The notes: a model not told the origin generated them from the letters alone. Counted from the first letter of the stretch, positions 620 to 64,000 are shown. The stretch: 64,000 nt of DNA from an uncultured Gemmatimonadaceae bacterium (GCA_963781585.1 CAWAGQ010000004.1:448001-512000), one strand, 5' to 3'. Numbers and translations: made by a program.

Positions 620-1581
620 GCGCGCGGCCGCTGGGCAAGGACCTGCTCGGGCTGGAGGCGCTCTCGGCCGAACAGATCGTCCTCGTTCTCGACGCGGCCG
701 AGTCGTTCAAGGAGATCAGCGAGCGGACGATCAAGAAGGTGCCGACCCTCCGCGGGATGACGATCGTCAACCTGTTCTTCGAGGCGTCCACGCGCACGCG
801 GATCTCCTTCGAGTTTGCCGAGAAGCGGTTGTCGGCGGACACGGTGAACGTGGCGACCGCCGGATCCAGCGTGCAGAAGGGGGAAACGCTGGTCGATACG
901 GCCCGGAACCTCGAGGCGATGCGGATCGACATGGTCGTGATCCGGCACGGCGCGTCGGGCGCGGCGCAGTTTCTCGCCGAACGGATCGAGTCGAACGTGA
1001 TCAACGCCGGCGACGGGACGCATGAGCATCCCACGCAGGGGCTGCTCGATCTGCTGACGCTGCGGGACCATTTCGGGTCGCTGGCCGGCCGGCGCGTCTG
1101 CATCGTGGGCGACGTGCTGCATTCGCGGGTGGCCCGGTCGAACATCTGGGGGTTGACGAAGCTCGGGGCCGACGTGGCGGTGTGCGGTCCGCGGTCGCTC
1201 CTGCCTAACGCGATCGACCAGCTGGGGGTGCGGGTGTTCGGGCGGGTCGAGGAGGCGATCGAATGGGCGGAGGCGCTGAACGTCCTCCGGCTGCAGCTCG
1301 AGCGCATGCACAGCGGCTACATTCCGTCGTTGCGGGAGTTCAACCGGGTGTTCGGCATCACGCGCGAGCGGCTGGAACGGGCGCCCCGTGACATTCTGGT
1401 GCTCCATCCGGGTCCGATGAACCGCGGCGTGGAAATCGACTCCGACGTGGCGGACGGGCCCCACAGCGTGATCCTCGACCAGGTCACCAATGGCGTGGCC
1501 GTGCGGATGGCGGTCCTCTATCTCCTCGCGGGCGGCAATCCGGAACTGGCCGAAGCGGCGAAAGGCGGGTCCGGGGCGTGA
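616..1581 (+). CDS. pyrB: Aspartate carbamoyltransferase catalytic subunit
   Basis: [14 protein letters not shown] and HPGP motifs; GTG start overlaps the pyrR stop. Confidence 0.95.
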
Positions 1582-2963
1582 CGGCCCCTGGTAAGGGACC
1601 CCTCAGTGGGGCCGATCGGAGCACCGGTGGCGCCCGGGCGTTCCACGCTGCGGCCGACGACGCGCCTGCGATGATTCTGCTCCGCGGGGGACGGGTGCTC
1701 GATCCGTCGCAGAATCTGGACGCGGTCGGCGACGTGCTCGTGGTCGACGGGGCCATCGAACATGCCGGCGCCACGTTAGGCGAGGTACGGCGGGAGCCGG
1801 GCGAATTGGAGACGATCGACTGCGAAGGGCAGATCGTGAGCCCGGGGTTCATCGACGTACACTGCCACCTGCGCGAGCCAGGACGCGAGGACGTGGAGAC
1901 GGTCGCGACCGGCGCCAGGGCGGCCGCCGCGGGCGGATTCACGGCCGTGTGCGCCATGCCCAACACCGATCCGGTCACCGACAACCAGGCCGCGGTGGGA
2001 TTCATCGTGCGACAGGCCATGCGCGCCCGCGCGGCGCGCGTCTATCCGATCGGCGCCATCTCGGTCGGGCAGAAGGGAGAGTCGCTGGCCGAGTTCGGCG
2101 AGATGGTGGGCGCCGGGGCCGTTGCCGTCAGCGACGACGGCAGACCGGTGGTGAGCGCCCAGCTCATGCGCACCGCGCTGGAGTACGCGCGCACGTTCGG
2201 GATCCCGGTCGCCGACCATTGCGAGGAGCCCACCCTCGTCAGAGCGGGGGCGATGAACGAGGGGGTGGTGTCGGCGCGCCTCGGCCTCGGCGCCATGCCC
2301 GCGGAAGCCGAGGAGATCATGGCCATCCGCGACATCCTGCTGGCGCGGCGCACCGGGGGCCACGTGCACCTCTGCCACATGAGCACCAGGGGCTCCGTGG
2401 AGCTGATCCGGTGGGGCAAGGATCGCGGCATCCGGGTGACCGCCGAGGTCTGTCCCCACCACCTCTCGCTCACCGAGGCCGACGTCGAGGGATACAACAC
2501 GAACGCGAAAATGAACCCGCCCTTGCGCACCGCCGACGACGTGGTCGCCCTGCGCGAGGCGGTGCGGGACGAGACGATCGACCTGGTGGCAACCGATCAC
2601 GCGCCGCACCACTATGACGAGAAGGAACGCGAATTCGCCGACGCGCCTAACGGGATCGTGGGCCTCGAGACGGCGCTGGCGGTGGTCACCACCTTTCTGG
2701 TGGTCCCGGGGATCATCGATTTTCCCACCCTGGTGCGCCGCATGTCCGTTTCGCCGGCCCGCGTGTTTGGCCTGCAGGGGGGGACGCTGCGGAAGGGCAG
2801 TGTGGCCGACGTCACAGTCTTCAACCCGGTCCGCGAATGGACGGTCGACCCCGAGCGCTTCCTGTCCAAGGGCCGAAACACGCCGTACAAGGGGCGCCGC
2901 CTCACCGGCCGTGCCACCTGTACCATTGTCGGCGGCCGAGTCGTCTACCGGCAGATGGATTAG
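1578..2963 (+). CDS. pyrC: Dihydroorotase
   Basis: [28 protein letters not shown]; alternative ATG start at 1671. Confidence 0.93.
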
Positions 2964-2978
2964 GGGGCCCGGCGCGCC

Positions 2979-4534: not shown

Positions 4535-4566
4535 GCATGCGCCGGTCGGAGTTCCCTGAAATGCGT

Positions 4567-4994: not shown

Positions 4995-5008
4995 TTAATG
5001 ACTTGGCT

Positions 5009-5794: not shown

Positions 5795-6526
5795 ATGACC
5801 GCATTAGTCGGCGCCCCGGATCCGTTCGTCGTTGAGCTGCCGCGATATTCGGGTCCCCTCGATCTCCTGCTCGCCCTGATCCGCGACGAAAAGGTCGACA
5901 TCTACGACATCCCGATCGCACGCATCGCCGAGCAGTTTCTGGTTCGCATCAAGACGTTAGGCATCGATCAGGCGGCGGACTATCTGGAGATGGCGGCGCG
6001 GCTGTTGCGCATCAAGGCCCAGCTGCTCCTTCCCCGCAACCAGGACGACGAGTCGTGGGAGGACCCGCGGGCCGAGCTGGTGCGGCGACTGCTCGAGTAC
6101 CAGCAGGTGCGTGAAGTGTGCGACGTGCTCGAGGAACTGGCGGAGGACCGGCGGCTGCGGTTCGCTCGCGCGTATTTGCCGGTTCCGGGCGGCGAGCCCC
6201 CGCCGTCGCCGCTCACCCTGTCCCTGGGCGACCTCCTGGCCGCCGTGGATCGCGTACTGCGTCTCGCGCGCGAGCCGCATATTCATGATGTCGTGCCTCG
6301 CGCGCTGGATGTCGAGGGTGCGATCGCGACCGTTCGGGCCGTGCTGCAACTCCGCGATCGCGCCCGCTGGTGCGATGTGGTCCGCCCATCGGCCGAGCCG
6401 TGGGAGGTATTGTCGGCCCTCCTCGCCCTTCTCGAGCTGGCGCGGCGCGGTGAGTTGCGCCTGCGCCAGCGTTCCCCATTCGCCTCCCTCGCCATCTCCC
6501 GTGAATCCACTGGCCAAGCTGCTTGA
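5795..6526 (+). CDS. scpA: Segregation and condensation protein A (kleisin)
   Basis: GPLDLLL.LIR...DIYDIPIARI N-terminus; C-terminal LALLEL. Confidence 0.92.
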   Translation: MTALVGAPDPFVVELPRYSGPLDLLLALIRDEKVDIYDIPIARIAEQFLVRIKTLGIDQAADYLEMAARLLRIKAQLLLPRNQDDESWEDPRAELVRRLLEYQQVREVCDVLEELAEDRRLRFARAYLPVPGGEPPPSPLTLSLGDLLAAVDRVLRLAREPHIHDVVPRALDVEGAIATVRAVLQLRDRARWCDVVRPSAEPWEVLSALLALLELARRGELRLRQRSPFASLAISRESTGQAA

Positions 6527-10738: not shown

Positions 10739-12408
10739 TGCGCGTTTTCGACTGGCCGTGGTTCACTCCGCTCGCGCTCATGCTCGCGGCCGGCGCAGCC
10801 GCCGTGGTGGTGTTCGGTTTCCGGCGTCGGCTGGCCCGCCTAACGCGACTTGGCGCGCGCGATCTGGTGCGCCGGCTGGTGCCGGCATCGGCGCTGGGAC
10901 GGCCCACCTGGCGGGCCACCCGGCTGGGGGGCGCGGCGCTGCTTGGACTGCTCGCCCTGGCCGGACCGCGCTGGGGTCAGGAGCGCAACGTCATGCGTGG
11001 CGAAGGCATCGACATGGTGCTGGCGCTCGATGCGTCGCTGTCCATGCTGGCGACCGATGAGCAGCCCAACCGCCTGGAACGCATGAAGCAGGAGGTGCGA
11101 CGGCTGCGAGCGCAGTCGCGCGGCGACCGCATCGCGCTCCTGGCCTTTGCCGGCCGCAGCTACATTCTCACCCCCCTCACGGTCGACGACGGTGCCCTCG
11201 ACCTCTTTCTCGACAATCTGGACCCGTCGATCGTGGGATTGGCCGGCAGCTCGCTGTCACGCACGATCGCGCAGGGCGTCGATCTCCTCCAGTCGAGCCA
11301 CAGCGCGAGCGACCGCGCCATCGTCGTGATGAGCGACGGCGAGGCCTTCGAGGACGAACAGGACATCGTCGATGCGGCCAACCGCGCGGGTCAGGCAGGC
11401 ATCGCACTGGTCACCGTGGGGTTCGGCACCACCCAGGGATCGACGATTCCCCTGCGTCAGGGGTCGCAGGTCGTTCTCAAGCGCGATGCGAACAATGAAA
11501 TCGTCGTGACCCGATACCAGCCGGGATTGCTCGAGGCGGCCGCGCGGGCGGCCGGCGGCACCTTCATATCCGCGTCGGAAACGGACAAGGCATCGCGGAT
11601 CCGTGCCGCGCTGCAATCGCTCCGCACCGCCGGCCGCTCCGTGGAGGCAGGACGCACCGAGACGCCGCGATACCAGTTCTTCCTGTTGCCGGCGCTGTTG
11701 CTGGTGCTGCTGGATCTGTGGAACGCCGAGCGCGGCGAGCGAAGACCGTCCGCCGCTGCCGCGGCCGTCACCGCCAGTCTTCTGCTCACCAGCAGCTGTG
11801 CGATGCCCGGCGGTGTGGTAACGGACGCCGCGCGTGCGTACCGCGCTGGGCACTACGCGTCGTCGGCACGCCTGTATCGGAGCGCAATCGATCGCGGCGA
11901 CCGTCGGCTTGCGGTCATGTACGATCTGGGCACCGCAATGGTCGCGGCCGACTCGAACGCAACTGCGGTCGAGCCACTGGAGCGCGTGGCCAAGGCCGAG
12001 GAGGCGGAACTGCGGTATCGCTCGCTCTTCAATCTTGGGCTCGCGCACCTGAAGCGCGGCCTGACGGGGGCAGATGGCGCCGATAGCACGCGGCAGGAGC
12101 TCGATGGAGCGCTGGATGCCTACAAGCACGCCCTGCTCATGCAGCCGGACGATCTCGACGCGAAGTGGAATTACGAGCTCGCGCTGCGGAAGCGGCAGTC
12201 CGGGGGTGGCGGAGGGGGCGGCGGTGAGTCGCAGAGCGGCGGCGCCAGCGCGCCGGAACCGTCCCAGGCAGAACGTCCGAGCGGCGGCCTGGGCCAGCAA
12301 CAGGCCGAGCAACTGCTCAACAGCGCCGCACGCGAGGAGCGCGCGGTGCAGGGCCGCAAACAGCACGACGCGAAGTCCCAAACGCCCCCGGGCGGGAAAG
12401 ACTGGTGA
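10738..12408 (+). CDS. vWA domain + TPR fusion protein (BatB/BatC-like)
   Basis: DASLS MIDAS-like motif, PLT.D, SDGE; TPR helices; ends in KDW. Confidence 0.85.
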   Translation: MRVFDWPWFTPLALMLAAGAAAVVVFGFRRRLARLTRLGARDLVRRLVPASALGRPTWRATRLGGAALLGLLALAGPRWGQERNVMRGEGIDMVLALDASLSMLATDEQPNRLERMKQEVRRLRAQSRGDRIALLAFAGRSYILTPLTVDDGALDLFLDNLDPSIVGLAGSSLSRTIAQGVDLLQSSHSASDRAIVVMSDGEAFEDEQDIVDAANRAGQAGIALVTVGFGTTQGSTIPLRQGSQVVLKRDANNEIVVTRYQPGLLEAAARAAGGTFISASETDKASRIRAALQSLRTAGRSVEAGRTETPRYQFFLLPALLLVLLDLWNAERGERRPSAAAAAVTASLLLTSSCAMPGGVVTDAARAYRAGHYASSARLYRSAIDRGDRRLAVMYDLGTAMVAADSNATAVEPLERVAKAEEAELRYRSLFNLGLAHLKRGLTGADGADSTRQELDGALDAYKHALLMQPDDLDAKWNYELALRKRQSGGGGGGGGESQSGGASAPEPSQAERPSGGLGQQQAEQLLNSAAREERAVQGRKQHDAKSQTPPGGKDW

Positions 12409-14605: not shown

Positions 14606-16345
14606 GTGTCCCGCATCGCTGTCCTGCCGAGTACCGTCGCCGACCAGATTGCCGCGGGTGAGGTGGTCGAGCGGCCGGCATCGGCGGTAAAGGAACTCCT
14701 CGAGAACGCGATCGACGCGGGCGCCACGTCCGTCGACGTGGAGATCGAGGATGGTGGGCGCGCCCTGGTGCGGGTCAGCGACGATGGATGCGGGATGGAC
14801 CGCGCCGACGCACTGCTTGCACTGGAGCGTCACGCGACATCGAAGATCCGGGCTGCGTCGGATCTGGTGGGAGTCTCCAGCTTCGGATTCCGCGGCGAAG
14901 CCCTTCCCGCGATCTGTTCGGTGTCGCGCCTCGAGTTGACGACCGCCACGGCCGACGGAGCCGGCGTGCTGGTGCGGGCGGCTGGCGGGGTCCGGGAGAG
15001 CGTGGAGACCGCGGCCCGGAGACGCGGCACGACGGTCAGTGTGGCTGACGTGTTCTACAACACGCCGGCACGCCGCAAATTCCTGCGCTCGGCCCGCTCC
15101 GAGTGGCGCTCGGTGCTGGAGACGATCACCGCGGTCGCGCTCGCGCGTTGCGATGTTCGCCTTCGCGTCACCGTCGACGGACGCGAGGCCGTGTCGCTCC
15201 CTCCCGCGCGCACGCTCCGGGAGCGCGTTGCTGCGCTTTGGGGGAACGCCTGGGCGGCTCGGTTCGTGGACGTGGATGCAGTCGTGGGTCCCGTTCGCGT
15301 CACGGGCCTGGTGGAGCGGCCCGGCGACGCCGGGACGTCCTCGCGCCGCGTGTCCGTGCTGGTGAACGGCCGGGCGGTGCGGGATTTCGGCCTGGTGCGG
15401 GGTGCCGAGGCGGCGTATCGGTCGGCGATTGCCCCCGGTGTGCGCCCGTCGCTGGTGCTCGCGATCGTGCTGCCGGGGGATGCGGTGGATGTGAACGTGC
15501 ATCCCGCCAAGGTGGAGGTTCGCTTTCACGATCGTTTCGGACTGGAGCGTGCGGTGGAGCAGGCGGTCCGTCGGGCGCTCGGCACCGCCGACAGCGTGGC
15601 CTCCCTCGGCGCGGGCATCATGACGTGGTCGCCCCGATCCTCGACGGTGGGACCGGCGGCCTCCGTCCTGTCACAGCTTCCCGCTGTCTCGGTGTCTCCG
15701 CTGTTCGCGCCGCCGGACTCGGACCCGACACCCGACGCCCGCGGACCAGGAAGCGATGCCGCAGTCAATGGGGAAGCGCCGTGGCAGCTCGTGCAGCTGC
15801 GGCGTGCGTACCTCCTGTACGAACATGAAGATGGAGTGGTGCTCATCGATCAGCACTCGGCGCACGAGCGGATCCTGTACGAGCGGTTTCTGCGGGAGCT
15901 GGAGCAGGGGAATGCACCCTCGCAGCGCTTGCTGCTCCCGGATACGCTGCATCTGTCGCCTGACGAGGCGGAAGCGCTGGATCGGCATGGCGAGGCGCTC
16001 GCACGCCTCGGGTACGAGCTGGAGCCGTTTGGCGGCCACTCGGTGATCGTGCGCGCGGTGCCGGCGCCCCATCCGCGCTTCGACGCGATCCGCTGCCTTC
16101 GCGAGACACTGCAGGGACTGAGCGGCGATCGCGGCGCCTCGGTGCACGCGCGACATGAGCGGTTGGTGGCCACCATCGCCTGCAAGGCGGCGGTGAAGGC
16201 GGGGGACGCACTCTCTCCCGAGGAGATGCGCGCGCTGTACCGGGCGCTCGCGTCCACAGCCCTGCCGGCCCACGACGTGCACGGGCGGGCGGCCATGGTC
16301 CGTCTGACCTGGGATGAGCTCGATCGACGCTTCGGGCGTCGTTAG
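14606..16345 (+). CDS. mutL: DNA mismatch repair endonuclease MutL
   Basis: QIAAGEVVERPASAVKELLENAIDAG, GFRGEAL, DQHSAHERILYE, ACK. Confidence 0.96.
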   Translation: MSRIAVLPSTVADQIAAGEVVERPASAVKELLENAIDAGATSVDVEIEDGGRALVRVSDDGCGMDRADALLALERHATSKIRAASDLVGVSSFGFRGEALPAICSVSRLELTTATADGAGVLVRAAGGVRESVETAARRRGTTVSVADVFYNTPARRKFLRSARSEWRSVLETITAVALARCDVRLRVTVDGREAVSLPPARTLRERVAALWGNAWAARFVDVDAVVGPVRVTGLVERPGDAGTSSRRVSVLVNGRAVRDFGLVRGAEAAYRSAIAPGVRPSLVLAIVLPGDAVDVNVHPAKVEVRFHDRFGLERAVEQAVRRALGTADSVASLGAGIMTWSPRSSTVGPAASVLSQLPAVSVSPLFAPPDSDPTPDARGPGSDAAVNGEAPWQLVQLRRAYLLYEHEDGVVLIDQHSAHERILYERFLRELEQGNAPSQRLLLPDTLHLSPDEAEALDRHGEALARLGYELEPFGGHSVIVRAVPAPHPRFDAIRCLRETLQGLSGDRGASVHARHERLVATIACKAAVKAGDALSPEEMRALYRALASTALPAHDVHGRAAMVRLTWDELDRRFGRR

Positions 16346-17246
16346 GCTCCGCGTCATCTGCGGCCCCACGGGCGCCGGGAAGTCGGCGCTGGCGCTGCGC
16401 CTGGCGGCGGGCCGCGGCGGGGCGATTCTGTCCGCTGATTCGCGACAGATCTACCGCGGGTTCGACATCGGGACCGCCAAGCCGTCGTCCGCCGAGCGCG
16501 CTACGGTGCCGCATTTCGGCATCGACCTGGTCGACCCGATGGCGCGCTACTCGGCGGCGGAGTGGGCGGCGGCGGTCCCCGAATGGCTCGCGGCCTGTCG
16601 CGGCCTCGGGCGCCAGCCGGTGATCGTCGGCGGCACCGGGTTCTATCTGCGCGCGCTGTTTTCGCCCCTGTTCGAGGCGCCGACGGTGGATCTGTCGCGT
16701 CGCGACGCGCTGGCGGGCCATCTGCACGGGTTCGAAACCGATGCCCTCCGTCGGTGGTGCCGGGTGCTGGACCCGCGGCGCGCCCACCTCGGTCGGGCAC
16801 AGCTGTTGCGCGCCGTCGAAACCGCGGTCCTGACGGGCCAGCGCATCAGCGATCTGCACGTCGTACGATCCCGCGCGCCGCGCTACACCGCCCGCTATCT
16901 TCTGATGGATCCGGGTCGCGCGCTCGCCGGCACGATTGCCGAGCGCACCGATCGGATGTTGGCCGCCGGCTGGCTCGATGAGGTGCGCGCCCTGGTGGCG
17001 CGGATCCGGCCCGACGCACCGGCGTGGACAGCCACCGGCTACGACGCGTTGCGTGACGTCGTGGCCGGCGTGTGCACCCTCCAGCAGGCACGGGAATCGA
17101 TCGTCATGCGGACGCACCGCTACGCCAGGCGACAACGCACCTGGTTCCGCCATCAGCTCGAGGCGTCATGGACCACGCTGCTCGAACCACACGACGAGGG
17201 CGCGCTCGCGCGGGCGTCAGACTGGTGGGACGAGGGCGCCGCCTGA
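16314..17246 (+). CDS. miaA: tRNA dimethylallyltransferase
   Basis: GPTGAGKS, DSRQIYRGFDIGTAKP, VGGTGFY, YARRQRTWF; start uncertain. Confidence 0.93.
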   Translation: MSSIDASGVVRLRVICGPTGAGKSALALRLAAGRGGAILSADSRQIYRGFDIGTAKPSSAERATVPHFGIDLVDPMARYSAAEWAAAVPEWLAACRGLGRQPVIVGGTGFYLRALFSPLFEAPTVDLSRRDALAGHLHGFETDALRRWCRVLDPRRAHLGRAQLLRAVETAVLTGQRISDLHVVRSRAPRYTARYLLMDPGRALAGTIAERTDRMLAAGWLDEVRALVARIRPDAPAWTATGYDALRDVVAGVCTLQQARESIVMRTHRYARRQRTWFRHQLEASWTTLLEPHDEGALARASDWWDEGAA

Positions 17247-19206: not shown

Positions 19207-19960
19207 CCTGGTGCAGGGCGCCCTCTACGAGCGGCGCGCGCCAAACGACCTCGCCTTCCAACTCGGCGTTGCCCGGGTGGTTGTGTTCGACGAGGTCGAT
19301 TCCACGATGGACGTGGCCCACCGGCTGGCGATGGCTGGTGCCGCTCCCGGGACAGTGGTCGTGGCCGACGCTCAGACGGCAGGCCGGGGGCGTAGCGGAC
19401 GACGCTGGGTTTCGCCGCCCGGCGCGGGGATCTGGTGCACCCTGATCGAACGTCCGAACGACCCGCGCGCGGTCGACGTGCTCTCGCTTCGCGTCGGACT
19501 GCAGGCGGCCCACGCGCTCGATCGGTTTGCCGGGGCCGAGGTGGGGCTCAAGTGGCCTAACGACCTGTACCTGCACGGCGCCAAGCTTGGCGGCGTGCTG
19601 GTGGAAGGCCGATGGCGGGACGGCCGCCTCGATTGGGTGGCGGTGGGGATCGGCGTCAACTGCCTCGCGCCACCCGGTGTGGCGCACAGCGCGGTGCTGG
19701 GCGCCGGCACCGATCGCGTGGAGGTGTTGGCGGAACTCGTGCCGGCTGTGCGCGCGGCCGCAGCCGCACGCGGCCATCTCTCGGACCGTGAGCTCGCGGC
19801 GTTCGCCCGGCGGGACGTGGCTGCCGGATCACCGTGCGTGGAACCGCGGGCGGGTCGGGTCGCCGGCATCGCCGCCGACGGAGCGTTACTGGTCGTGACG
19901 GCGGCTGGCGTGGTGCGCTGCCGGGAGGGTGGACTTCGCATGGAGGGCGATCCGTCATGA
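19199..19960 (+). CDS. birA: Biotin--[acetyl-CoA carboxylase] ligase (no HTH)
   Basis: DSTM, QTAGRGR.GR.W, KWPND, KLGGVL. Confidence 0.92.
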   Translation: MPDLVQGALYERRAPNDLAFQLGVARVVVFDEVDSTMDVAHRLAMAGAAPGTVVVADAQTAGRGRSGRRWVSPPGAGIWCTLIERPNDPRAVDVLSLRVGLQAAHALDRFAGAEVGLKWPNDLYLHGAKLGGVLVEGRWRDGRLDWVAVGIGVNCLAPPGVAHSAVLGAGTDRVEVLAELVPAVRAAAAARGHLSDRELAAFARRDVAAGSPCVEPRAGRVAGIAADGALLVVTAAGVVRCREGGLRMEGDPS

Positions 19961-20736
19961 TACTCGTCTTCGACATCGGCAACACCGAGACGACGCTCGG
20001 CCTGTTTGATGGCGAGGTGCTCCGTGCCCACTGGCGCATCGTCACTGATGTCTCACGCACGCCCGACGAACTGGCGCTCGTGCTGCGAGGCCTGCTCGCG
20101 GCGCGCGACGCCGCGCCGTCCGGGGTCACCGGGTGCGCGATCGCGTCGGTCGTGCCGGCGCTGACCGAGCCCCTGTCGGAGGCGTGTCGGGCCCTCTTTG
20201 GCGGCGATCCGATTGTGGTCGATGCCAGCGCCGCGCTGCCTATCACGCTGGATGTTCTGGAGCCCCTGACGGTGGGTGCGGACCGGATCGTGAACACGCT
20301 GGCCGCCAGTCGGCTGCTGGAGCGCGACACGATCGTCGTGGATCTGGGTACGGCCACCACCTTCGATTGCATCACAGCGGATGGCGTATTCCTGGGGGGC
20401 GTGATCGCACCGGGGGTGCGTTCATCCGCCGAGACGCTGTTTCGGAGGACCTCGAAACTCCCGGCCACCGAGCTGGCGGCCCCCGACCGCGTGATCGGAC
20501 GGCGCACTGAGGACTGTATCCGCTCCGGCGTTGTTTACGGCGCCGCCGAAGCGGTCGATGGCATCGTGAGGCGGATCAAGGGCGAGTGGCCGACGCCCCG
20601 GGTACCGATCGTGGTGGCCACCGGCGGCCTCGCACACCTCATTCAGCCCCACTGTCGCGAGGTGGAGCGCCTGGAGCCCAATCTGACCCTGGTAGGGCTC
20701 CGGCTGGCCCACGAGATCATCAGCGCTTCGCGTTAG
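19957..20736 (+). CDS. coaX: Type III pantothenate kinase
   Basis: DIGNT, GADR, VDLGTATT.D, GGVIAPG, ATGG. Confidence 0.95.
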   Translation: MILVFDIGNTETTLGLFDGEVLRAHWRIVTDVSRTPDELALVLRGLLAARDAAPSGVTGCAIASVVPALTEPLSEACRALFGGDPIVVDASAALPITLDVLEPLTVGADRIVNTLAASRLLERDTIVVDLGTATTFDCITADGVFLGGVIAPGVRSSAETLFRRTSKLPATELAAPDRVIGRRTEDCIRSGVVYGAAEAVDGIVRRIKGEWPTPRVPIVVATGGLAHLIQPHCREVERLEPNLTLVGLRLAHEIISASR

Positions 20737-20750
20737 GCGCTGGAAGTACG

Positions 20751-23882: not shown

Positions 23883-26617
23883 CAGAAAGGCGACCAGCGG
23901 TCAGGCCGGGCATCCGGCGCCTCTTCCGTCTTGCACTCCGACGCCGGGATCAGGTGGTTCGTGATGTCGACGAAGAGATCCGGCTGCACATCGAATTGCG
24001 GGCCGAGCAGCTCATTCAAGAAGGCGTGTCCCCAGCGGCGGCCCGCGAGGAGGCCGAGCGACGATTCGGAGCGGCGGAGAGTGCCCGTGACCACTTGCAT
24101 CGCGTCGCCCGGCGGCGCGAGCGCGCGCTGGGGGTGCGGGAACGCGTCGGCGCGATCGTCGACGATGCGCGCCACGCGGCGCGCGGACTTCGCCGCGACG
24201 GCGCGTTCAGCGCATTCGCGGTGGGCAGTCTGGCGCTCGGCATCGGTGCCAGCGCGGCGACCTACGGCATCGTGGACCGGCTCCTGCTCCGCGGTCCCGA
24301 GCATGTGCGCAACGCGGAGCGCGTGGTGCGTGTCGTGCTGACGGCGAGGCGCGAGGGCTTCGGCGAGGTCAGGACCGGCGACTTCGGATACGTCATGTAC
24401 GATCATCTTCGCCGCGCCGCGCGACTGTTCGACGGCTTCGCCGGCTACGCGATGGAATCGGAGCCAATGGGGCGGGGATCTGCCATTCGCCCCATCGCCG
24501 CGGGGTACGCCACCGCCGATTTCTTCCCGCTGCTTGGCGTGTCCCCCCAGCGCGGCCGGTTCTTCACCGCCGACGAGGACCGGTCCAGCGGGGCGCAGCG
24601 AGTGACGGTACTCGGAGATGCCTTGTGGCGTGTCCAGTTCGGCGCGGACTCGAATGTCGTCGGGAAGACGATCACGATCGGCGGCGAGCCCTTCACCGTG
24701 ATCGGGGTGGCGCCTCGCGGCTTCAGCGGGGTCGACCTCTCGCGCGTGGACGCGTGGCTTCCGATGACGCTGAAGAGCAGCAACACCACCAGCGACTGGA
24801 CCCACAGCTGGGCTGCGGAGTGGATGCGTATCGTCGGACGCGTGCGCCCGGGCGTTTCGCTCGAGGACGCGAGTCGCGACGCGACCGAGGCGCATCGGAA
24901 CACCTACGATGGCGCCTCGGCGGTGCTGGCGCAGGCGCGGCTCGCCGTGGTGCCGGTGCTCTATACGCCGCAGGGGCGCGAGTCCACCCAGAGCACCGTG
25001 GCGCGGTGGCTGATGGGCGTCACGCTCATCGTCCTGCTGATCGCCTGCGTGAACGTGGCGAATCTGCTGGTGGCGCGCACCATCCGGCGGCGGCGCGAGG
25101 TCGCGGTCCGTCTTGCGTTAGGCGTGAGTCGCTGGCGGTTGGGGCGTTTCTTCGTCATCGAGAGTCTGGTCCTGTCGGTGGCCGGCGGGGTGGCCGCGCT
25201 GGGGGTGGCGGCGCTGATCACGGTGCTGGTCCGCGCGTCCCTCCTGGCCGGAGTCGAGTGGACGTCATCCGTGGTGAGCTGGCGCGTGTTCGCGGCAGCC
25301 ATGCTGACGGCCATGGCCTCGGGGCTGGTGGTCGGCGTGGCGCCGGCGATCAGTGCTGCCCGCCGTTCGCTGCAGGGCGCTCTCAGGGCGGGGGCGCGCG
25401 ACGGTGGTGGCCGTCGCCTGCGGCTCAGTATCTGGCCCACCGTGGCGCAGTCCGCGCTCTCGGCGGCATTGCTCATCGCTGCCGGCCTGTTCGTGCGCAG
25501 CCTGGCCCGGGCGCACGCGGTTCCTCTGGGATTCGATGCCGAGCGGGTGCTGTCGGTGCAGCCGAACTTCCAGCCGGTCCCCGCCAACGCGAATGCGACC
25601 ACCAGAGCGGCGGTGCGTGAGGCGCGCATCGCCACCATGCGCCGCGCGCTCCAGAAGGTGCGCACCCTGCCGGGCGTGGAGCACGCGAGCCTGGCGGTGG
25701 GGTCGCCGTTCGGCTACGCCTTTTCGATCTCGCTCTTCCTCCCCGGTGGCGACAGCGTCGCCGCCCTGGAAGGCGGAGGGCCCTACATCAGCGCCGTATC
25801 AGATGGGTACTTCGAAACGGTGGGCACTCGCCTCATTCGCGGCCGCACGTTCGCGGCCTCGGACGGGCCTGGATCCGAGCCGGTGGCCATCGTCAACACG
25901 ACCATGGCAAAGCTGCTCTGGTCGCACGACGACCCGCTCGGCAAGTGCCTCATCGTGGGGTCGCCGACGGCACCCTGTGCGCGTGTGGTCGGCATCGTGG
26001 AAGACGCGCATCGGGAGACCCTGCATGAACCGCCCGCGATGCAGTACTACATCCCGTTCGGTCAGGAGCGCGGGTTCGGCGGCACCGTGGCGCTCGTCCG
26101 TCCGCGGGGACGTCTCAGCGCCCTCGTCATTCCGCTGCGCCGGAATCTGGCAGGTCTGGACGGGCTGCTGGAGTCGGTGAATGTCGTTCCCTTGGAGGAG
26201 CATTTCGACGCTCTGGTGCGTCCGTGGCGGCTGGGTGCGACGATGTTCAGCCTTGGCGGCGTGCTCGCCCTGCTGGTCGCGGGGCTGGGTCTGTACAGCG
26301 TGCTCTCCTACCTGGTGGTGCAGCGCACGCACGAGATCGGCGTTCGCATGGCGTTAGGCGCCAGCGGTCGTCAGATCATGGCCCTGGTGCTCGGCGAGAG
26401 CCTCGTCACCGCCTCCGTGGGCGTCGCGCTCGGCGTGGCGGCGTCGTGGTACGCGGGTCGCTATCTCGAGGGACTGCTGTTCGAGACCTCGGCGCACGAC
26501 CCCGGCGTCCTGTTTGCCGCGGCGCTGACGCTGCTCGGTGCGGCCACCGCCGCGGCGCTTCTCCCCGCGCTGCGGGCCCGGCGCGTGGATCCTGTGCGGG
26601 CGCTGTCCGCGGAGTAG
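23879..26617 (+). CDS. Duplicated MacB/FtsX-type ABC permease without ATPase (ADOP-like)
   Basis: Permease-prefix DEEIRLHIE...AERRFG; LLIAC.NVANLL, EVAVRLALG, EIGVRMALGA, RVDPVRAL. Confidence 0.92.
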   Translation: MTERRPAVRPGIRRLFRLALRRRDQVVRDVDEEIRLHIELRAEQLIQEGVSPAAAREEAERRFGAAESARDHLHRVARRRERALGVRERVGAIVDDARHAARGLRRDGAFSAFAVGSLALGIGASAATYGIVDRLLLRGPEHVRNAERVVRVVLTARREGFGEVRTGDFGYVMYDHLRRAARLFDGFAGYAMESEPMGRGSAIRPIAAGYATADFFPLLGVSPQRGRFFTADEDRSSGAQRVTVLGDALWRVQFGADSNVVGKTITIGGEPFTVIGVAPRGFSGVDLSRVDAWLPMTLKSSNTTSDWTHSWAAEWMRIVGRVRPGVSLEDASRDATEAHRNTYDGASAVLAQARLAVVPVLYTPQGRESTQSTVARWLMGVTLIVLLIACVNVANLLVARTIRRRREVAVRLALGVSRWRLGRFFVIESLVLSVAGGVAALGVAALITVLVRASLLAGVEWTSSVVSWRVFAAAMLTAMASGLVVGVAPAISAARRSLQGALRAGARDGGGRRLRLSIWPTVAQSALSAALLIAAGLFVRSLARAHAVPLGFDAERVLSVQPNFQPVPANANATTRAAVREARIATMRRALQKVRTLPGVEHASLAVGSPFGYAFSISLFLPGGDSVAALEGGGPYISAVSDGYFETVGTRLIRGRTFAASDGPGSEPVAIVNTTMAKLLWSHDDPLGKCLIVGSPTAPCARVVGIVEDAHRETLHEPPAMQYYIPFGQERGFGGTVALVRPRGRLSALVIPLRRNLAGLDGLLESVNVVPLEEHFDALVRPWRLGATMFSLGGVLALLVAGLGLYSVLSYLVVQRTHEIGVRMALGASGRQIMALVLGESLVTASVGVALGVAASWYAGRYLEGLLFETSAHDPGVLFAAALTLLGAATAAALLPALRARRVDPVRALSAE

Positions 26618-39516: not shown

Positions 39517-40958
<1,442 letters not shown>

Positions 40959-46775: not shown

Positions 46776-47129
46776 ATGGATGTGACCCTCGAGCGCCGGA
46801 TGCTGGGATTGATCGGATTGGGGCTGCGGGCGCGGAACGCCGTGATCGGCGTGGAGCGGGTGCGGGAAGCCGCGCGCCGCGGGCGTCTGGCGTTGGTGGT
46901 GGTGGCGCCCGACGCGTCTCGGCACAGTCGGGCCAAGATGCTCCCGCTGCTGGCCGCGCGCCGGGTGCGGGTGATCGAGGGTCCGTCGCTGGCCTCGTTA
47001 GGCGCGGTCGCCGGCCGCGACGCGGCGGCCGCGATCGGGATTCTCGACCCGGCGCTGGCGCGCGGGATGCGGGATCTGGTTCAGGTAGATCGGCGCCGCC
47101 ACGACGGCGACGCCGCGAAGGGCCGCTAG
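46776..47129 (+). CDS. L7Ae/L30e/YlxQ-family RNA-binding protein
   Basis: LGLIGLG.RA...IG, VVVAPDAS; between nusA and infB. Confidence 0.85.
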   Translation: MDVTLERRMLGLIGLGLRARNAVIGVERVREAARRGRLALVVVAPDASRHSRAKMLPLLAARRVRVIEGPSLASLGAVAGRDAAAAIGILDPALARGMRDLVQVDRRRHDGDAAKGR

Positions 47130-47138: not shown

Positions 47139-49829
47139 TTGAGCAAGCTTCGCGTCAACGACATGGCTGGCGAGTTCGGGATTCCGTCGGAGGACGTCAT
47201 CAACCTCCTCCGGCAGATGGACGTCGCCGTACGCAGTCACCTGACCGTCCTCACGGACGATCAGGTGGCGCGTGTGCGCGCACGCTGGGAGAAGGAGAAG
47301 CGACTGCGCCAACAGGAGAAGCCAGCGAGTGCACCGTCGCGACGACGGCGTACGGTTGCCGCGACCAGTCCGTCCCCTTCCAGCGAGGGCGCGGCTGCGC
47401 CCGCCGTTCGCCGGCGCCGCCGCCCTGCCGCGGAGGCTCCACCGGTCGAGGAGGTGGAGGCGCAGGTGTCGATCGCGACCGAGGAGCAGGAGACAGAGGC
47501 GCCCGACGCAGCGGCCGCACCGCCGGTTGCCGAGCCGGAGGCGTCCGAGGCACCCGTTGTGGCCGTACCCGAACCGCCCACCGACGTCGCGGTCGAAACC
47601 GCGGAGCCGGTTGTCCAAGCCGAGCCGCCGGCCGAAGTGCCCCGGCGGCGCCCTCCTCCGTCCGCGGGATCCCCGCGGCCACCCGCTCTGGAACGTCCAC
47701 GGCCGCGCCCGGTCGTGCCAGGCGCCCCGCGTCCCAAGCCCGTGGCCAGCGCCAGTCCCTTCCACCCACCTCGCCCCGTTGCGTCTGCGACTCCGGGTGG
47801 CGGCGTCGGCATGCCCACCCGTCGGGAAGAGCGCAAGGGCGGTGGTGGGGCGGGAACCATGCAGCCCTCCCAACGGAGGAAGAAGGGCAAGCGAGGTGCG
47901 GTCGACCAGGAAGAGGTGACCGCGAACATCAAGCGCGTTACGACATCGATGCGTGGTGCACCCACCCGGCGCGGACCGCGACGCCCGGAGGAATCGCGCG
48001 AGGATATGGAGGCGCAGCGCCTCGCCGACCAGGAGCGCGAGCGCAAGACAGTGCGGGTCAACGAATTCATCACGGTCGCGGAGCTCGCTGACATCCTGAA
48101 GGTGCCGCCTACGCAGATCGTGGCCTTCGCGTTCAAGAACCTCGGCCTGATGGTCACCATCAACCAGCGACTGGATTTCGACCAGATCGAGCTGATCGCG
48201 AGTGAATTCGGCTTCCAGGCGGTTCGGGAGGAGGAATACGCCGCCGACATGACGGAGGAGGTGGTCGAGGACCGCCCCGACGAGCTGTCGCCGCGCCCGC
48301 CGGTCGTCACCATCATGGGGCACGTCGATCACGGCAAGACGACCCTGCTCGACTACGTCCGCAAGTCGAGCGTGGTCGCCGGCGAGGCGGGTGGCATTAC
48401 CCAGCACATCGGCGCCTATCACGTCACCCTGCCTAACAACAAGCGGATCACGTTTCTCGACACCCCGGGACACGAAGCGTTCACGGCCATGCGGGCACGC
48501 GGCGCACAGGTCACCGACATCGTCGTCCTGGTGGTTGCCGCCAATGACTCGGTGATGCCGCAGACGGTCGAGGCGATTTCTCACGCCAGGAACGCCGGCG
48601 TACCCCTCATCGTCGCCGTCAACAAGATCGATCTCCCGGATGCGAATCCGACGAAGGTCATGCAGGATCTGCTGACCCAGGGCGTCGTGCTGGAGATGTT
48701 CGGCGGGCAGACACTGTCTACGCCGGTCTCGGCGAAGAAGGGCACGAACGTCTCCGAGCTGCTCGACCAGCTCCTGCTCCAGGCCGAGGTGCTCGATCTC
48801 AAGGCGAATCCGAACCGCCGCGCCGTGGGCACGGTCGTCGAGGCCCAGCTCGACGCCGGCAAGGGACCAGTGGCCACCGTGCTGGTGCAGAACGGTACCC
48901 TGCACGTCGGCGACGACTTCATCAGTGGGCTGTACTCCGGGCGTGTGCGGGCCCTGCTCGATGAACGCGGCAAGCCGGTCAAGGAGGCGGGGCCGGCGAT
49001 TCCCGTGCAGGTGCTCGGGCTGGCCGGCGTGCCAACCGCCGGCGACCAGTTCCTCGTTGTCGACGACGCCACGCAGGCGCGGGAGATCGCGCAGCGTCGC
49101 GAACGCCTGGATCGCGAGGCGAAGAGCCGGCGCACCAGCAAGAGCGCCGTCACGCTCGAAGACTTCATGTCGCAGACCGAGGCGGGTGAGACCCGCACGC
49201 TGCGCATTCTCATCAAGGCCGACCAGGGCGGTCCCGCCGAAGCCCTGGCCGATGCGCTCGCTCAGTTGTCGACCGCCGAGGTGGCGGTCGAGGTGATCCA
49301 TCGCGGTGTCGGCGCCATCACGGAGAGCGACATTCTGCTGGCGCGGGCGTCCGGCGCCGTGATCATCGGGTTCCACGTGCGACCGGACAACAACGCACGC
49401 ACGGCCGCCGAGCGTGAAGGCGTCGACATCAAGTTGTATCGCGTGATCTATGACGCCGTGAACGACGTGCGGGCCGCGCTCGAAGGACTGCTCCGTCCGG
49501 AAGAGCGCGAAGTGATTCTGGGGGAGGCCGAGGTGCGGGACACGTTCAAGGTGTCTCGCGTGGGGACAGTGGCAGGCTGCTACGTTCGCAGCGGCGTGAT
49601 CAACCGTCAGGCGCGTGCCCGGGTCATTCGAGATGGCTCGGAGGTGTACGCCGGCTCCATCGCCTCGCTGCGCCGATTCAAGGACGACGTTCGCGAAGTC
49701 AAGGAAGGGTACGAATGCGGCGTCGGGATCGAAAACTTCAACGACATCAAGGTCGGTGACGTGATCGAGTGCTACCGCAAGGAGGAGGTGGCGCGAACGC
49801 TCCAGCCGGAAGCACAGCCCGGCCGGTAG
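47139..49829 (+). CDS. infB: Translation initiation factor IF-2
   Basis: [36 protein letters not shown] before TTG. Confidence 0.98.
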
Positions 49830-57897: not shown

Positions 57898-57993
57898 GCC
57901 CTCAGTAGCCGCGCCTCGCGTGGACCAGGCGCTTGCCTTCGGCCCTCGAGGGGTCTCGATGATAGGCTTGAGCGACTTGTCATGAGTGCCTAA

Positions 57994-58077
57994 CGACTTC
58001 CGACTTCCGCGCTCCGACTTCCGACTTCCGCCCTCCGCCCTCCGCCCTCCGGCTTCCCTCCTCCGACCTCCGACCTC
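57994..58077 (+). repeat. Tandem heptamer array, 12 units (CGACTTC/CGCCCTC/CGACCTC)
   Basis: Uninterrupted 7-nt phase for 84 nt, ending 2 nt before the selD start. Confidence 0.9.
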
Positions 58078-59990: not shown

Positions 59991-60768
59991 CGCGAGCGGC
60001 GTTGGGCACACGCCGCGCTTCGCGCGCCAGCACTTCGTCCCCGCCGCCGGGCCTCCAGCGGCGCAACTCGACCGCCGCAGCGTCCACGCGCAGGTAGGTC
60101 GTATCGTCCATCCAGGTTCCCGCGTTGGCGTAGATGCCGCCGCCGGCCACCCGCTCCAGTTCCGCCACGTGGGAATGTCCGAACACCAGCAGGTCCAGCG
60201 ACGGATCGCCGTCGAGGGTGCGCCGGGCCACCTCGCGCAATCCCGCGCCGCCGTCGCGGGCGCGGTAGGAGCGACTGGCCTGCGAGCTGCCTAACGCCAA
60301 TCGCGTCCCGAGATCCGGATGGACCAGGCGAAAGGCGCGTACCGCCCACGGGTGGCGGAGAACCGCCCGGAGCGCGCGGTAACGCCGGTCCTCGGCACGG
60401 CGAAGACCATCGCCATGGTCGATCCGCACCGACCAGCCGGCGATGTCTCCCCGCCACGCGCCCACGTGATACTGCACCCCGACGTCGGCCCGCAGCACAT
60501 CGCCACCCCAGCAATCGTGATTCCCCGCGATCCATAGAATCGGGACTCCCCGCTCCGCCAACCGCGCCAGTTGTGCCACCACGCGAAACCCGACCCGCGG
60601 GATCACCGAGCGCCACTCGAACCAGAAGTCGAACAGGTCGCCGTTCACGATCAGCGACCCCGCCTCGTCTTCGAGCGTCTCCAGAAACCGGAGGATTCCT
60701 CGCTCCACCTCGGGCGGTGTCACGCCGAGATGGGCGTCGGAAATGAGGTAGCACGGTGGCGGGAGCAC
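59974..60768 (-). CDS. UDP-2,3-diacylglucosamine diphosphatase-like metallophosphoesterase (LpxH-like)
   Basis: ISDAHLG, GDLFDFW.E, GNHD, HGDG, FGHSH, N.G.W. Confidence 0.85.
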
Positions 60769-61616: not shown

Positions 61617-61627
61617 CCCACGGCGCC

Positions 61628-63124
61628 ATGGACGCCGACCTGCAGAGCATCCAGGAAGCGCGCGATCTGGTAGCCCGCGCTGCGGCGGCGCAGGCGGCCT
61701 TTGCCAACGCCACGCAGGAACGCGTCGACGCGGTGGTGCGCGCCATGGCGACCGCCGCTTCAGCTGCGGCCGAGCCGCTGGCGCGCATGGCGGTCGACGA
61801 AACGCGCATGGGCGTATACGAGCACAAGATCATCAAGAATCGCTTTGCGTCCGACACCCTGGCTGCGTACATCCTGCCCATGCGCACGGTGGGCGTGCTC
61901 CATGACGACCCGGAGCGGCGAGTGCGAGAACTGGCCGTGCCAATGGGCGTCGTGGGCGCCATCGTCCCGACGACAAATCCCACCTCGACCGCGATCTACA
62001 AGGCGCTCATCTCGCTCAAGGCGCGCAATGCGATCGTGATGTCACCGCACCCGCGCGCCGTTCAGTGCACGGTCGAAGCCGCGAACGTGCTCGAGCGCGC
62101 GGCCGTCTCGGCGGGGGCGCCCCCCGGTCTCGTGAACGCCATGACGGCGCCCACGCTCGACGGGACCAGGGCCCTCATGCACCATCGCGAAACCGCCGTG
62201 CTCCTCGCCACCGGAGGCACGGACATGGTGCGTGCCGTGTATTCGTCAGGCAAACCGGCCTATGGCGTGGGTCCCGGCAACGTGCCGGCCATCATCGAAC
62301 GGACCGCGCGTGTCGACAAGGCGGTAGCGGACGTGGTGGACGGCAAGACCTTCGACGCGGGAGTGCTCTGTTCGGCGGAGAACGCGGTGGTCGTCGACGC
62401 ACCGGTCGAACGCGACGTCCGCGGGGCGTTCCAGCGGGAGCGGGCGCATTTCTGCACCCCGGAGGAGAAGCGTGCTCTCGAACGGTTGATGATCCCGCCA
62501 TCGGGGAAGGGCATCAACCCCGACGTCGTGGGCCAGCAGCCGCAGGCGATCGCGCGCATGGCCGGCTTCCCTGTTTCTCCCGACGCGAAGCTCCTGATCG
62601 TCGAGCTCACGGGCGTCGGCCGTGGCGATCCACTCAGCCGCGAGAAGCTCTGCCCGGTGCTGGCGTACTTCGTCGAGGACGGCTGGGAAGCGTGCTGTCA
62701 CCGCGCGATCGAACTGCTGCGCTACGGTGGCATCGGTCACTCGCTGAGCATTCACAGCCGCGACCAATACGTGATCGACCGGTTCTTCGAGGAGAAGCCC
62801 GCGTTTCGCATCATCGTGAACTCCAACACCGCCATCGGAGCGGTCGGCTTCACGACCGGCTTCGCGCCGGCGATGACGTTGGGTCCCGGCTCGTGGGGCG
62901 GCAGCATCACCTCGGACAACATCACCCCGCTTCACCTCATCAACGTCAAGCGGATCGGCGAGGAGATCCGGCCGTATCGTGATCCGCTGCGCGATTCCGT
63001 ACCGGCCGGCGCCGCCAAGGCACCGCGCACCGAGTCGGACTTTCCGGACGGGAGCCTTGACGAGCAGGGCGTGCAGCGGGTGGTAGCCGATTTCCTGACC
63101 GAGTTCCGGGCCTCGCATCGATGA
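61628..63124 (+). CDS. CoA-acylating aldehyde dehydrogenase (EutE/PduP-like) with C-terminal encapsulation peptide
   Basis: D.DLQSIQEAR, PTTNPTST, ATGG, GVGPGN, LCSAE catalytic Cys, EKLCP; tail DEQGVQRVVADFL. Confidence 0.92.
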   Translation: MDADLQSIQEARDLVARAAAAQAAFANATQERVDAVVRAMATAASAAAEPLARMAVDETRMGVYEHKIIKNRFASDTLAAYILPMRTVGVLHDDPERRVRELAVPMGVVGAIVPTTNPTSTAIYKALISLKARNAIVMSPHPRAVQCTVEAANVLERAAVSAGAPPGLVNAMTAPTLDGTRALMHHRETAVLLATGGTDMVRAVYSSGKPAYGVGPGNVPAIIERTARVDKAVADVVDGKTFDAGVLCSAENAVVVDAPVERDVRGAFQRERAHFCTPEEKRALERLMIPPSGKGINPDVVGQQPQAIARMAGFPVSPDAKLLIVELTGVGRGDPLSREKLCPVLAYFVEDGWEACCHRAIELLRYGGIGHSLSIHSRDQYVIDRFFEEKPAFRIIVNSNTAIGAVGFTTGFAPAMTLGPGSWGGSITSDNITPLHLINVKRIGEEIRPYRDPLRDSVPAGAAKAPRTESDFPDGSLDEQGVQRVVADFLTEFRASHR

Positions 63125-64000
63125 CCGACGACGAACTCGACCGGCTGGCGGGGCTGATCGCCGACGCCCTGCAGCGCGACCGCGACGCGGCCGCGCCGTC
63201 CCGTCCGGTTCCGTGGCTGCTGCCACCAATCCGTCCCGCCCCCCCCGACCGCGGTGGAGAGCCGGCCCCGTGGACCGGGGCCGGCCAGTCGTTAGGCGAT
63301 GTGGCGCCTGTCCGCCACCCGGTTGCGCCGCGCCACCGCGCGGATGTAGGCGAGCTGACCGCCGCCGTCCGGGGCGCGGCCGCCGGCAAGGGCATCCCCG
63401 CGGCGCCGGTCAGGCCGGAGCGTGATGCGCCCACAGGGCGCCGCGCGCGCCGCACGCTGCCGATCTCCGTCCCGATCGGCGTCTCCAATCGGCACCTGCA
63501 CCTGTCACCGGATCATGTCGCGATCCTGTTCGGGCCCGCGGGGCTCCGGTCGGGGCGCGACCTGGTACAGCCGGGTCAGTTCGCGGCGTTGGAAGCGGTT
63601 GCCGTGGTCGGACCCGCTGGCCGCCTCGACGCGGTGCGCGTCGTCGGACCGGCCAGATCCGCTACCCAGCTGGAACTGGCCCTGAGCGACGCCGTGACGC
63701 TCGGCGTGCAGCCACCGGTGGCGGCAAGCGGGGACCTCGGCGCGTCGATCGGGGGAGTGACCCTGGTCGGTCCGCACGGGCGCGTCGCCCTCGAACGCGG
63801 TGTGATCGTGGCGGCGCGCCATCTCCACCTCGCGCCGGCCGACGCCCAGCAGTGGGGCCTGCAGGACGGCGACCGCGTCGACGCGACCTGCGGCATGAGC
63901 GCCCGCGCGGTCACGCTCCACAACGTCCTGGTGCGGTCCGGACCGTCGCATGCCACCGAGCTCCACCTCGACGCCGATGAAGCGCGCGCCGCTGCCGCGC
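63121..64000 (+). CDS. pduL: PduL-type phosphate acyltransferase (3' truncated by window)
   Basis: Not in the ORF track because it has no stop; open from ATG 63121 with IGVSNRHLHLS, QPGQFAA, RVVGP.R, RHLHL, ELHLDADEA. Confidence 0.92.
   Translation, partial: MTDDELDRLAGLIADALQRDRDAAAPSRPVPWLLPPIRPAPPDRGGEPAPWTGAGQSLGDVAPVRHPVAPRHRADVGELTAAVRGAAAGKGIPAAPVRPERDAPTGRRARRTLPISVPIGVSNRHLHLSPDHVAILFGPAGLRSGRDLVQPGQFAALEAVAVVGPAGRLDAVRVVGPARSATQLELALSDAVTLGVQPPVAASGDLGASIGGVTLVGPHGRVALERGVIVAARHLHLAPADAQQWGLQDGDRVDATCGMSARAVTLHNVLVRSGPSHATELHLDADEARAAAA

Follow-up and report, generated by a model that had tools for sequence, protein, structure and literature searches.

A dispersed octamer of the uptake-sequence and HIP1 kind in Gemmatimonadales, Verrucomicrobia and phages

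Results

An octamer recurs across the window

We analysed 64,000 nucleotides of DNA from an uncultured Gemmatimonadaceae bacterium (GCA_963781585.1 CAWAGQ010000004.1:448001-512000; hereafter the window), which is G000:C4:448001-512000 in a source assembly, G000, of 5.72 Mb, 17 contigs and 67% GC. The octamer CGTTAGGC (hereafter the word) is scattered through this stretch, and it is a real, strong and selected DNA word of the kind known from DNA uptake sequences (DUS), uptake signal sequences (USS) and the highly iterated palindrome HIP1. An earlier reading made without database searches (the sequence-only reading) had placed 18 copies in the window, and all were found exactly there, 10 on the + strand and 8 on the - strand; its 7/8 match at 48431 proved to be TGTTAGGC on the - strand. 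Genes in the window were named from NCBIfam profiles. They were called with a crude codon-usage caller, which gave 4007 genes and 80.5% coding in the assembly, so that the intergenic class is over-counted. The copies are as follows (G001, G009, G016, G023 and G024 are relatives of G000).

1203..1210, - strand: word copy in pyrB, gene strand CTG CCT AAC GCG (L-P-N-A); word also at this site in G001, G024 and G009
1774..1781, + strand: word copy in pyrC, ACG TTA GGC (T-L-G); word in G009 and G023, TTG in G001 and G024
2645..2652, - strand: word copy in pyrC, GCG CCT AAC GGG (A-P-N-G); word in G001, 7/8 match in G016
5955..5962, + strand: word copy in scpA, ACG TTA GGC; word in G001 and G024, CTC/CTG GGC in word-poor relatives
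10838..10845, - strand: word copy in a BatB-like VWA gene, minor frame CGC CTA ACG (R-L-T)
16340..16347, + strand: word copy giving the mutL TAG stop (CGT TAG GC; 16343-16345), with GTT AGG in the overlapping miaA start
19555..19562, - strand: word copy in birA, TGG CCT AAC GAC (W-P-N-D)
20731..20738, + strand: word copy giving the TAG stop (20734-20736) of coaX (type III pantothenate kinase)
25116..25123, + strand: word copy in an ADOP-family permease gene, GCG TTA GGC
26352..26359, + strand: second word copy in the ADOP-family permease gene, GCG TTA GGC
30009..30016, - strand: word copy in a glmU-like gene on the - strand, CCG TTA GGC
33478..33485, + strand: word copy in serS, GCG TTA GGC
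38579..38586, + strand: word copy in gatA, GCG TTA GGC
39617..39624, - strand: word copy in gatB, CCG CCT AAC GAG (P-P-N-E)
46996..47003, + strand: word copy in a ylxQ/L7Ae-like gene, TCG TTA GGC
48431..48438, - strand: 7/8 variant TGTTAGGC, among the variants enriched genome-wide
57988..57995, - strand: intergenic word copy, with no gene called there by the crude caller
60289..60296, - strand: word copy in lpxH on the - strand, GCG TTA GGC
63290..63297, + strand: word copy in a pduL/eutD-like gene, TCG TTA GGC

By codon context, ten copies are xCG-TTA-GGC, four G-CCT-AAC-G, one GC-CTA-ACG, two TAG stops and one spacer. The sequence-only reading was therefore right that the copies lie mostly within genes, using TTA-GGC and CCT-AAC, and that the word supplies the TAG stops of mutL and coaX. 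The mutL/miaA overlap spans 32 bases (window 16314-16347), and a single word copy there serves as the mutL stop and as miaA Val-Arg codons.

Dinucleotide-preserving shuffles of the window (n=100) contained 0.76 copies on average and 3 at most, and none reached 18; the earlier estimate of about two copies from base composition was of the right order. At one mismatch or fewer, the window holds 59 matches for 43 expected, the one-mismatch class being without excess there.

The excess is genome-wide and resides in the DNA

In the whole assembly the word occurs 1442 times, 724 forward and 718 reverse, where 217 copies are expected from base composition, 89 from an order-1 and 51 from an order-3 Markov model. 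It is the first-ranked 8-mer under both Markov models. Genome counts are inflated by about a tenth: some 0.6 Mb of G000 is present twice at 88-90% identity, in contig pairs C2~C6, C5~C8 and C11~C17 (181, 338 and 60 kb aligned, respectively), and 325 copies fall in these parts, giving a non-redundant total of ~1280. The bin probably mixes two related strains or has large diverged duplications. The window's contig, C4, is outside the listed duplicated pairs.

What level of organization does the excess belong to? We permuted synonymous codons within each gene (12 shuffles), a null that preserves proteins and per-gene codon usage. Against it, the word was observed 780 times in sense orientation for 16.2 expected (48x) and 331 times in antisense for 26.4 expected (12.5x). 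It again ranked top, and the 25 leading 8-mers were all its shifts or single-base variants (CGTCAGGC, TCGTCAGG, CGTTAGGT). The next independent 8-mer family, (T)CGTCAGGC(A), is itself one base off (474 vs 103 expected). Enrichment over the shuffle reached 16x for CGTTAGGT, 6x for TGTTAGGC and 4.6x for CGTCAGGC; one-mismatch neighbours seem depleted under this null, in part artefactually, since it moves TTA codons around. G000 has 1259 TTA codons, of which 751 lie within CG-TTA-GGC, 94 more in CG-TTA-GGT and 50 in TG-TTA-GGC. The sequence-only reading had said that its excess must survive codon- and dipeptide-preserving shuffling, and it does. That reading would also have fallen to a similar excess of unrelated TA-containing octamers; none behaves so in G000. 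The excess is a DNA-level effect, not a protein or codon effect.

The word is neutral to replication and transcription

The 1442 copies comprise 750 in xCG-TTA-GGC, 29 in C-GTT-AGG-C, 267 in G-CCT-AAC-G and 62 in GC-CTA-ACG; a further 93 run across the end of a gene, frequently as TAG or TAA, and 241 fall beyond the gene calls, in the over-counted class. Among Leu-Gly and Pro-Asn pairs, 751 of 4458 eligible [SPTA]-L-G sites and 269 of 1099 P-N-[G..] sites are written as the word, with similar fractions in both orientations.

At position -1, C is avoided in every class, including intergenic copies (0.11-0.13; 0.07 and 0.16 in two rare frames), and at position +8 a purine is preferred in every class, again including intergenic copies. 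The fuller form is D-CGTTAGGC-R, an orientation-neutral, DNA-level word. The description of the flanks as not conserved is thus roughly correct and fails at these two positions. In G000, T is the best-written -1 base (Ser 21%, Thr 17%, Ala 16%, Pro 14%).

Copies are spread evenly along genes and are equally dense in coding and spacer DNA, with no intergenic or terminator preference. Gaps shorter than 300 bp are scarce (2.0% vs 7.4% expected), and G000 has word-free stretches of 20-39 kb, many of them lower in GC. None of the 64 tRNA/tmRNA genes has the word; the rRNA operon regions hold 2-3 copies each, only one of them at a shared place.

Raw counts are skewed, with ~780 sense vs ~330 antisense copies and with 61% and 67% of copies on the G-rich (leading) strand of the two C4 arms. 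The sense excess arises from peptide supply, that is, from which peptides can carry the word. Supply and gene orientation together fully account for the bias on C4, since gene orientation (71%, 83%) and the sense bias predict 58% and 63%. Sense contexts are written equally often in leading and lagging genes (208/1187, 17.5%, vs 119/636, 18.7%; Fisher p 0.52), as are antisense contexts (69/271, 25.5%, vs 51/194, 26.3%; Fisher p 0.91). Thus, no replication polarity beyond gene effects, as a Chi or KOPS (FtsK-orienting polar sequence) test would reveal, was found in G000. The earlier claim of no strand skew stands once coding is controlled and fails for the raw counts; its corollary, that the word is no Chi- or KOPS-type polar signal, stands.

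The word is kept between congeners and follows native composition

We aligned 331 kb of G000 with its congener G001 (86.7% identity, 26% third-position divergence). In the other genome, 61 of 85 G000 words (72%) and 61 of 71 G001 words (86%) are intact, whereas phase-matched control 8-mers (n=95,357) are intact in 36% of cases (binomial p ~3e-11 for G000 words and ~5e-18 for G001 words). The word is kept between congeners twice as well as matched controls. Among changed copies, 23 of 34 are one base off, mostly as CGTTAGGT (8) or CGTCAGGC (7). Several word positions are common to G000, G001, G024, G009 and G023; where a relative is word-poor, its orthologous sites read CTC/CTG-GGC or CCG/CCC-AAC, as is usual.

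The written fraction rises with GC content at third codon positions (GC3), from 2.8% in the lowest 5% of genes to 26.6% in the top quintile. Like an uptake sequence, the word is kept in relatives (72-86% vs 36%) and, by this GC3 gradient, scarce in foreign DNA.

The trait is patchy and spans two phyla

In relatives and phages we counted the word beside a control, its reversed form. Counts in 40 relatives run from 3 to 6360 (G009, 1.25 per kb), and in most the word is rarer than the control. A seven-gene tree unites G000, G001, G024, G016, G009 and G023 in one supported clade, all word-rich; G014, G005, G020, G013 and the pair G040/G038 are rich beside poor sisters, which implies at least five transitions in 37 genomes. 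G016, G020 and G013 are moderately rich. In a phylum sample of 251 genomes, 8 by our tally exceed twice the control, all in two families of the order Gemmatimonadales, and no genome of the other Gemmatimonadota families sampled does so. The sequence-only reading of a genome-wide, lineage-specific DNA tag agrees with this distribution and with the word's first rank in G000.

A scan for close direct pairs (one genome per species) listed word-dense loci from many Gemmatimonadaceae metagenome-assembled genomes (MAGs), and its listed matches included loci of Chthoniobacterales and Verrucomicrobiae MAGs. G000 could be aligned, at 67-71% DNA identity, with 8 of 10 loci of Gemmatimonadaceae or Gemmatimonadales MAGs and with none of 3 loci of other phyla, an indirect check of its family. 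Five Verrucomicrobial genomes hold 2286-4633 copies of the 9-mer TCGTTAGGC (0.6-1.4 per kb; control ~60). Their -1 base is T in 90-94% of copies, and their commonest one-off variants are TGTTAGGC and CGTCAGGC, position-1 and position-4 variants as in G000. We compared G000 with 0.26 Mb of Verrucomicrobial DNA, a small sample, in search of genes of unusual similarity, and found no transfer candidate; the best matches were a four-gene cluster at 58-76% identity, which we take from gene sizes alone to be housekeeping, and rpoB/rpoC at 54%.

Phage genomes carry the word in host frames

Two close-pair scans of IMG/VR listed ~200 loci, most of which hold only the pair, and five contigs among them are word-dense:

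G041: 26 copies in 28.5 kb
G042: 35 copies in 45.6 kb
G043: 43 copies in 41.1 kb
G044: 18 copies in 49.2 kb
G045 (IMGVR_UViG_3300020577_002214; L224, L413, L414): 16 copies in 41.7 kb

Four of the five matched PHROGs profiles for large terminase, portal, head protease, major capsid or tape-measure proteins, and the fifth matched those for a replication initiator and structural proteins. The word is present at host-like density (0.37-1.05 per kb) on both strands, with 0-4 reversed controls per record. Copies use the same codon frames as in the host, 11- to 22-fold over a synonymous shuffle in genes, and many lie exactly at gene boundaries as a TAA or TAG stop. G042 and G044 have integrases over the cut-off, and G044 is classed as a provirus. 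G045 encodes its own PolA, clamp-like factor, primase, helicases and an endolysin, together with a 7-deazaguanine DNA-modification set (DpdA-like transglycosylase, QueC, QueE and the GTP cyclohydrolase FolE).

Discussion

A candidate self tag linked to transformation

What reads the word? By analogy with DUS, USS and HIP1, we tentatively favour a self tag linked to natural transformation, and we infer that its reader belongs to the transformation machinery. Ordinary point substitutions would create the word at any place where the protein allows it, at Leu-Gly as TTA-GGC, at Pro-Asn as CCT-AAC, in stop codons and in spacers. It would then be retained by a force on the DNA itself, double-stranded and orientation-neutral. 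If a sequence-specific step in transformation (binding, uptake or recombination) favours word-bearing DNA, copies would spread and persist in the long-resident DNA of the lineage and of its temperate phages. ComEC is present in 40 of 41 Gemmatimonadales (a set that includes G000 and over which all candidate readers were surveyed), G000 among them, and G000 has ~12 pilin-like genes by their N-terminal motif.

Several points weigh against a transformation-linked tag. We found neither a receptor nor a competence gene that tracks the trait, ComEC being near-universal, and no literature account of transformation for these organisms. Frames with wobble at word positions 1, 4 and 7 (0-based 0, 3 and 6) are far less written (V-R 29/1550, xGC-L-T 62/925), which neither mutational distance nor codon rarity explains. 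The short-gap deficit of G000 is absent in a denser Verrucomicrobial contig. For one core to occur in two phyla, the reader must have been transferred or some external cause be shared, and to our knowledge DUS and USS offer no example of either. An uptake model does not predict that local attC sites have exactly this 8-mer as their 3' core (see below). Finally, no integrase was found on the word-rich phage G045 at its 70% estimated completeness; if G045 is virulent, uptake-driven spread would not reach it.

More generally, none of the candidates (integron integrase, ComEC, RecC, Vsr and a 1076-aa methylase) tracks the trait over the 41 genomes. The correlation with competence genes or methyltransferases that the sequence-only reading had envisaged did not appear for ComEC or for the 1076-aa methylase.

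A possible in-cell site for an abundant protein

Alternatively, the word could be a cis-acting site read on any replicon in the cell by an abundant DNA-binding protein. Such a protein might act in the nucleoid or in segregation, assist replication or belong to a defence by which marked DNA is spared. We consider this possible, though rather doubtful. Host genes, phages and cassettes would then all be under selection to carry the word, which would suit bona fide phage genomes with 16-43 copies each in host frames and boundary stops, the more so as one of them, G045, looks virulent. The site, which is 9-10 bp long, asymmetric and graded in its tolerance, matches a single protein monomer, and orientation neutrality, conservation and equal density in coding and spacer DNA are also as expected. 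However, no candidate protein was found. Known nucleoid and segregation sites occur in tens to hundreds of copies in a genome, and codon usage is not overridden by them. Of the five phages, two encode integrases, so that residence as prophages could account for their copies, and the steep nativeness gradient fits a slow drive equally well.

A possible methylated mark

A methylation-centred account overlaps with the transformation tag: a methyltransferase would mark the single adenine of CGTTAGGC or the AA of the opposite strand, and uptake, recombination or repair proteins would read the mark. G000 encodes three Eco57I/MmeI-type N6-adenine methylases, a class with asymmetric sites that marks one strand. 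One of the G000 methylases, a 1076-aa Type IIG-like protein (G000:C2:157769-160996 and C6:144472-147699), is single-copy in 39 of 41 Gemmatimonadales with identity that tracks phylogeny. Restriction-modification genes do not usually behave so, and an epigenetic role in housekeeping is suggested. As the cognate enzyme it was rejected: it is present in word-rich and word-poor genomes alike and was not found in four of the five word-rich Verrucomicrobia, with one weak match among the five. Our motif screen of methylases in G000 was crude. Vsr was likewise rejected; it occurs in 5 of 41 genomes (G000, G002, G007, G019, G034) and not in the rich G001, G005, G009, G024 and G040, and very-short-patch drive is thus unsupported. 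A parallel is HIP1, which two sources describe as recognised by two methylases and as aiding transformation only when methylated (PMC13756078; bioRxiv 10.1101/2024.09.10.611283). Overall, we regard a methylated mark as unlikely.

The integron connection

The word-poor genomes G027, G025 and G029 hold few copies, and these cluster on single contigs, in one orientation, every ~550 bp. From their sequence organization these clusters are large chromosomal integron cassette arrays, with ~90-nt attC sites of the form GCCTAACA...GCGCCGCAGCTTAAGCGC..C-CGTTAGGC. We counted 23 sites in 20 kb of G027:C95 and found others in G025:C3, G027:C80, G027:C43 and G029:C113. The locus L001 (in G027:C95:1-24000, as is L002; L003 is in G025:C3) has no open reading frame (ORF) of at least 400 aa and no tandem repeat. 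In L001-L006 the full 8-mer forms the 3' end of the attC sites; it contains GTTAGGC, the classic class 1 integron core form, which fits GTTRRRY. The likeness to the integron core noted in the sequence-only reading is therefore real and stronger than claimed. Identity over 8/8 positions has a chance of ~1 in 30,000 per comparison, and coincidence is unlikely. The complement of the attC 5' box reads TGTTAGGC, one of the enriched variants.

An integron integrase over the curated cut-off is present in 26 of 41 relatives and three of the five word-rich Verrucomicrobia vs none of 14 control genomes; with their large arrays, Gemmatimonadales are unusually integron-rich lineages. Could the integrase IntI or a relative bind the word as an R-box, or could uptake or capture machinery be tuned to the attC core? 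We think this improbable. The integrase, rejected as the determinant of the trait, occurs in rich and poor genomes both (18 of 27 word-poor genomes by our tally) and is missing or broken in the rich G005, G013, G015, G024 and G009 and not found in G047 and G050. The -1 base is mostly C in attC, whereas C is the least favoured in dispersed copies. The degeneracy allowed by GTTRRRY (A5G, G6A, G7A) is not tolerated by the dispersed word. While attC sites are paired cores 50-130 nt apart, in arrays by intI, the dispersed copies are single and inside housekeeping genes, with no partner box or stem, and inverted attC-like pairs show no excess in G000 (~8 loose pairs in 5.7 Mb, none array-type). Thousands of insertion cores in essential genes would also be harmful.

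A narrower version is that the word is read precisely because it is the integron cassette core. A protein of uptake, capture or recombination that recognises the attC R' box would have passed between Gemmatimonadota and Verrucomicrobiota of the soil, likely favouring the intake or handling of cassettes, and molecular drive would have put thousands of copies of the box into the genes of hosts and into resident phages. This is more improbable still; if true, natural transformation, integrons and a genome-wide sequence drive would be one system.

G000 itself has an intact intI. No attC array was found beside the integrase, and no attC-like pattern at C13:302-320 kb, where one word looks like a cassette boundary. 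That region (G000:C13:302001-320000, L421) encodes a SNF2 helicase and a Type IIG enzyme (PADLOC PDLC03628, E 7e-304). A 301-aa frame comes next and covers the integron-integrase (tyrosine recombinase) model matches; the same 303-aa frame is at three genome places. After the integrase-like frame is a stretch of small ORFs with six same-strand words at C13:313350-316814, a group that may be a cassette cluster.

Chi

A Chi-like recombination hotspot, marking DNA as self and restraining a nuclease of RecBCD/AddAB type, is close to refuted: like Chi, the word is asymmetric and eight bases long, is common in core DNA and scarce in islands, and has copies in phages, partial variants and a density of ~1 per 4 kb that resembles that of Chi in E. 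coli, but it lacks polarity once coding is controlled, RecC (rejected as a reader) occurs in 1 of 41 relatives and not in G000, and G000 has only two weak PDDEXK_1 matches (557- and 576-aa frames; AddAB families were not searched directly), so a RecBCD-type Chi is unlikely. The densities of G009 (~1.2 per kb) and of the Verrucomicrobia are, moreover, far above any Chi known to us.

Relation to known DNA words

How does the proposed transformation tag compare with known systems? The DUS of Neisseriaceae has the receptor ComP, and USS is the system of Pasteurellaceae. Like them, the word is short and non-palindromic, with hundreds to thousands of copies on both strands in tolerant frames; it is kept between related species, is seldom present in DNA of recent acquisition and comes in lineage dialects, in this case D-CGTTAGGC-R and TCGTTAGGC. 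Unlike them, it has one core that spans Gemmatimonadota and Verrucomicrobiota and equals the local attC core; there is no intergenic or terminator preference; and the trait is patchy inside one family. The occupation of tolerant coding frames is described for USS in one study (PMC2817400). HIP1 (GCGATCGC) is, like the word, a conserved 8-mer that overrides codon usage; long without a known function, it has, according to recent work, been proposed as an uptake sequence (PMC13756078) and found to raise transformation in a way that depends on methylation (bioRxiv 10.1101/2024.09.10.611283). HIP1 differs in being palindromic with known cognate methylases, whereas CGTTAGGC is asymmetric and no cognate methylase was found. 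Literature searches on both 8-mer forms gave no match, and none of the matches listed linked Gemmatimonadota or Chthoniobacter to uptake sequences.

Self words are the main handle on how bacteria discriminate kin from foreign DNA, and we know of very few lineages in which they are hyper-abundant (Neisseriaceae, Pasteurellaceae, cyanobacteria). The word described here belongs to two little-studied soil phyla, overrides codon usage ~50-fold, spans phyla and phages and coincides with an integron recombination core. Its 9-10 bp site is a precise bait (oligo TCGTTAGGCA) for finding the reader by pull-down or methylation calls. The word could also serve as a marker for assigning phages and cassettes to hosts, and it offers a practical route to try improving the transformation of soil bacteria that are hard to engineer.

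Other repeats

A second, weaker over-represented set in G000 consists of AGGCCAAA/TTTGGCCT and their relatives AAAGGCCA and AGGCCATA, which top the maximal-order Markov list (331 vs 149 expected). A search of word-poor relatives for other dispersed words (~20 kb per genome) gave no candidate, the top 8-mers being local heptamer arrays. Other heptamer or 15-mer arrays (L048, L047, L042) form inverted clusters in Gemmatimonadales spacers. Tandem (CGTTAGG)n arrays (L115, L082, L120) occur in the unrelated taxa Thioalkalivibrio, Desulfacinum and Yersinia and are distinct from the dispersed phenomenon.

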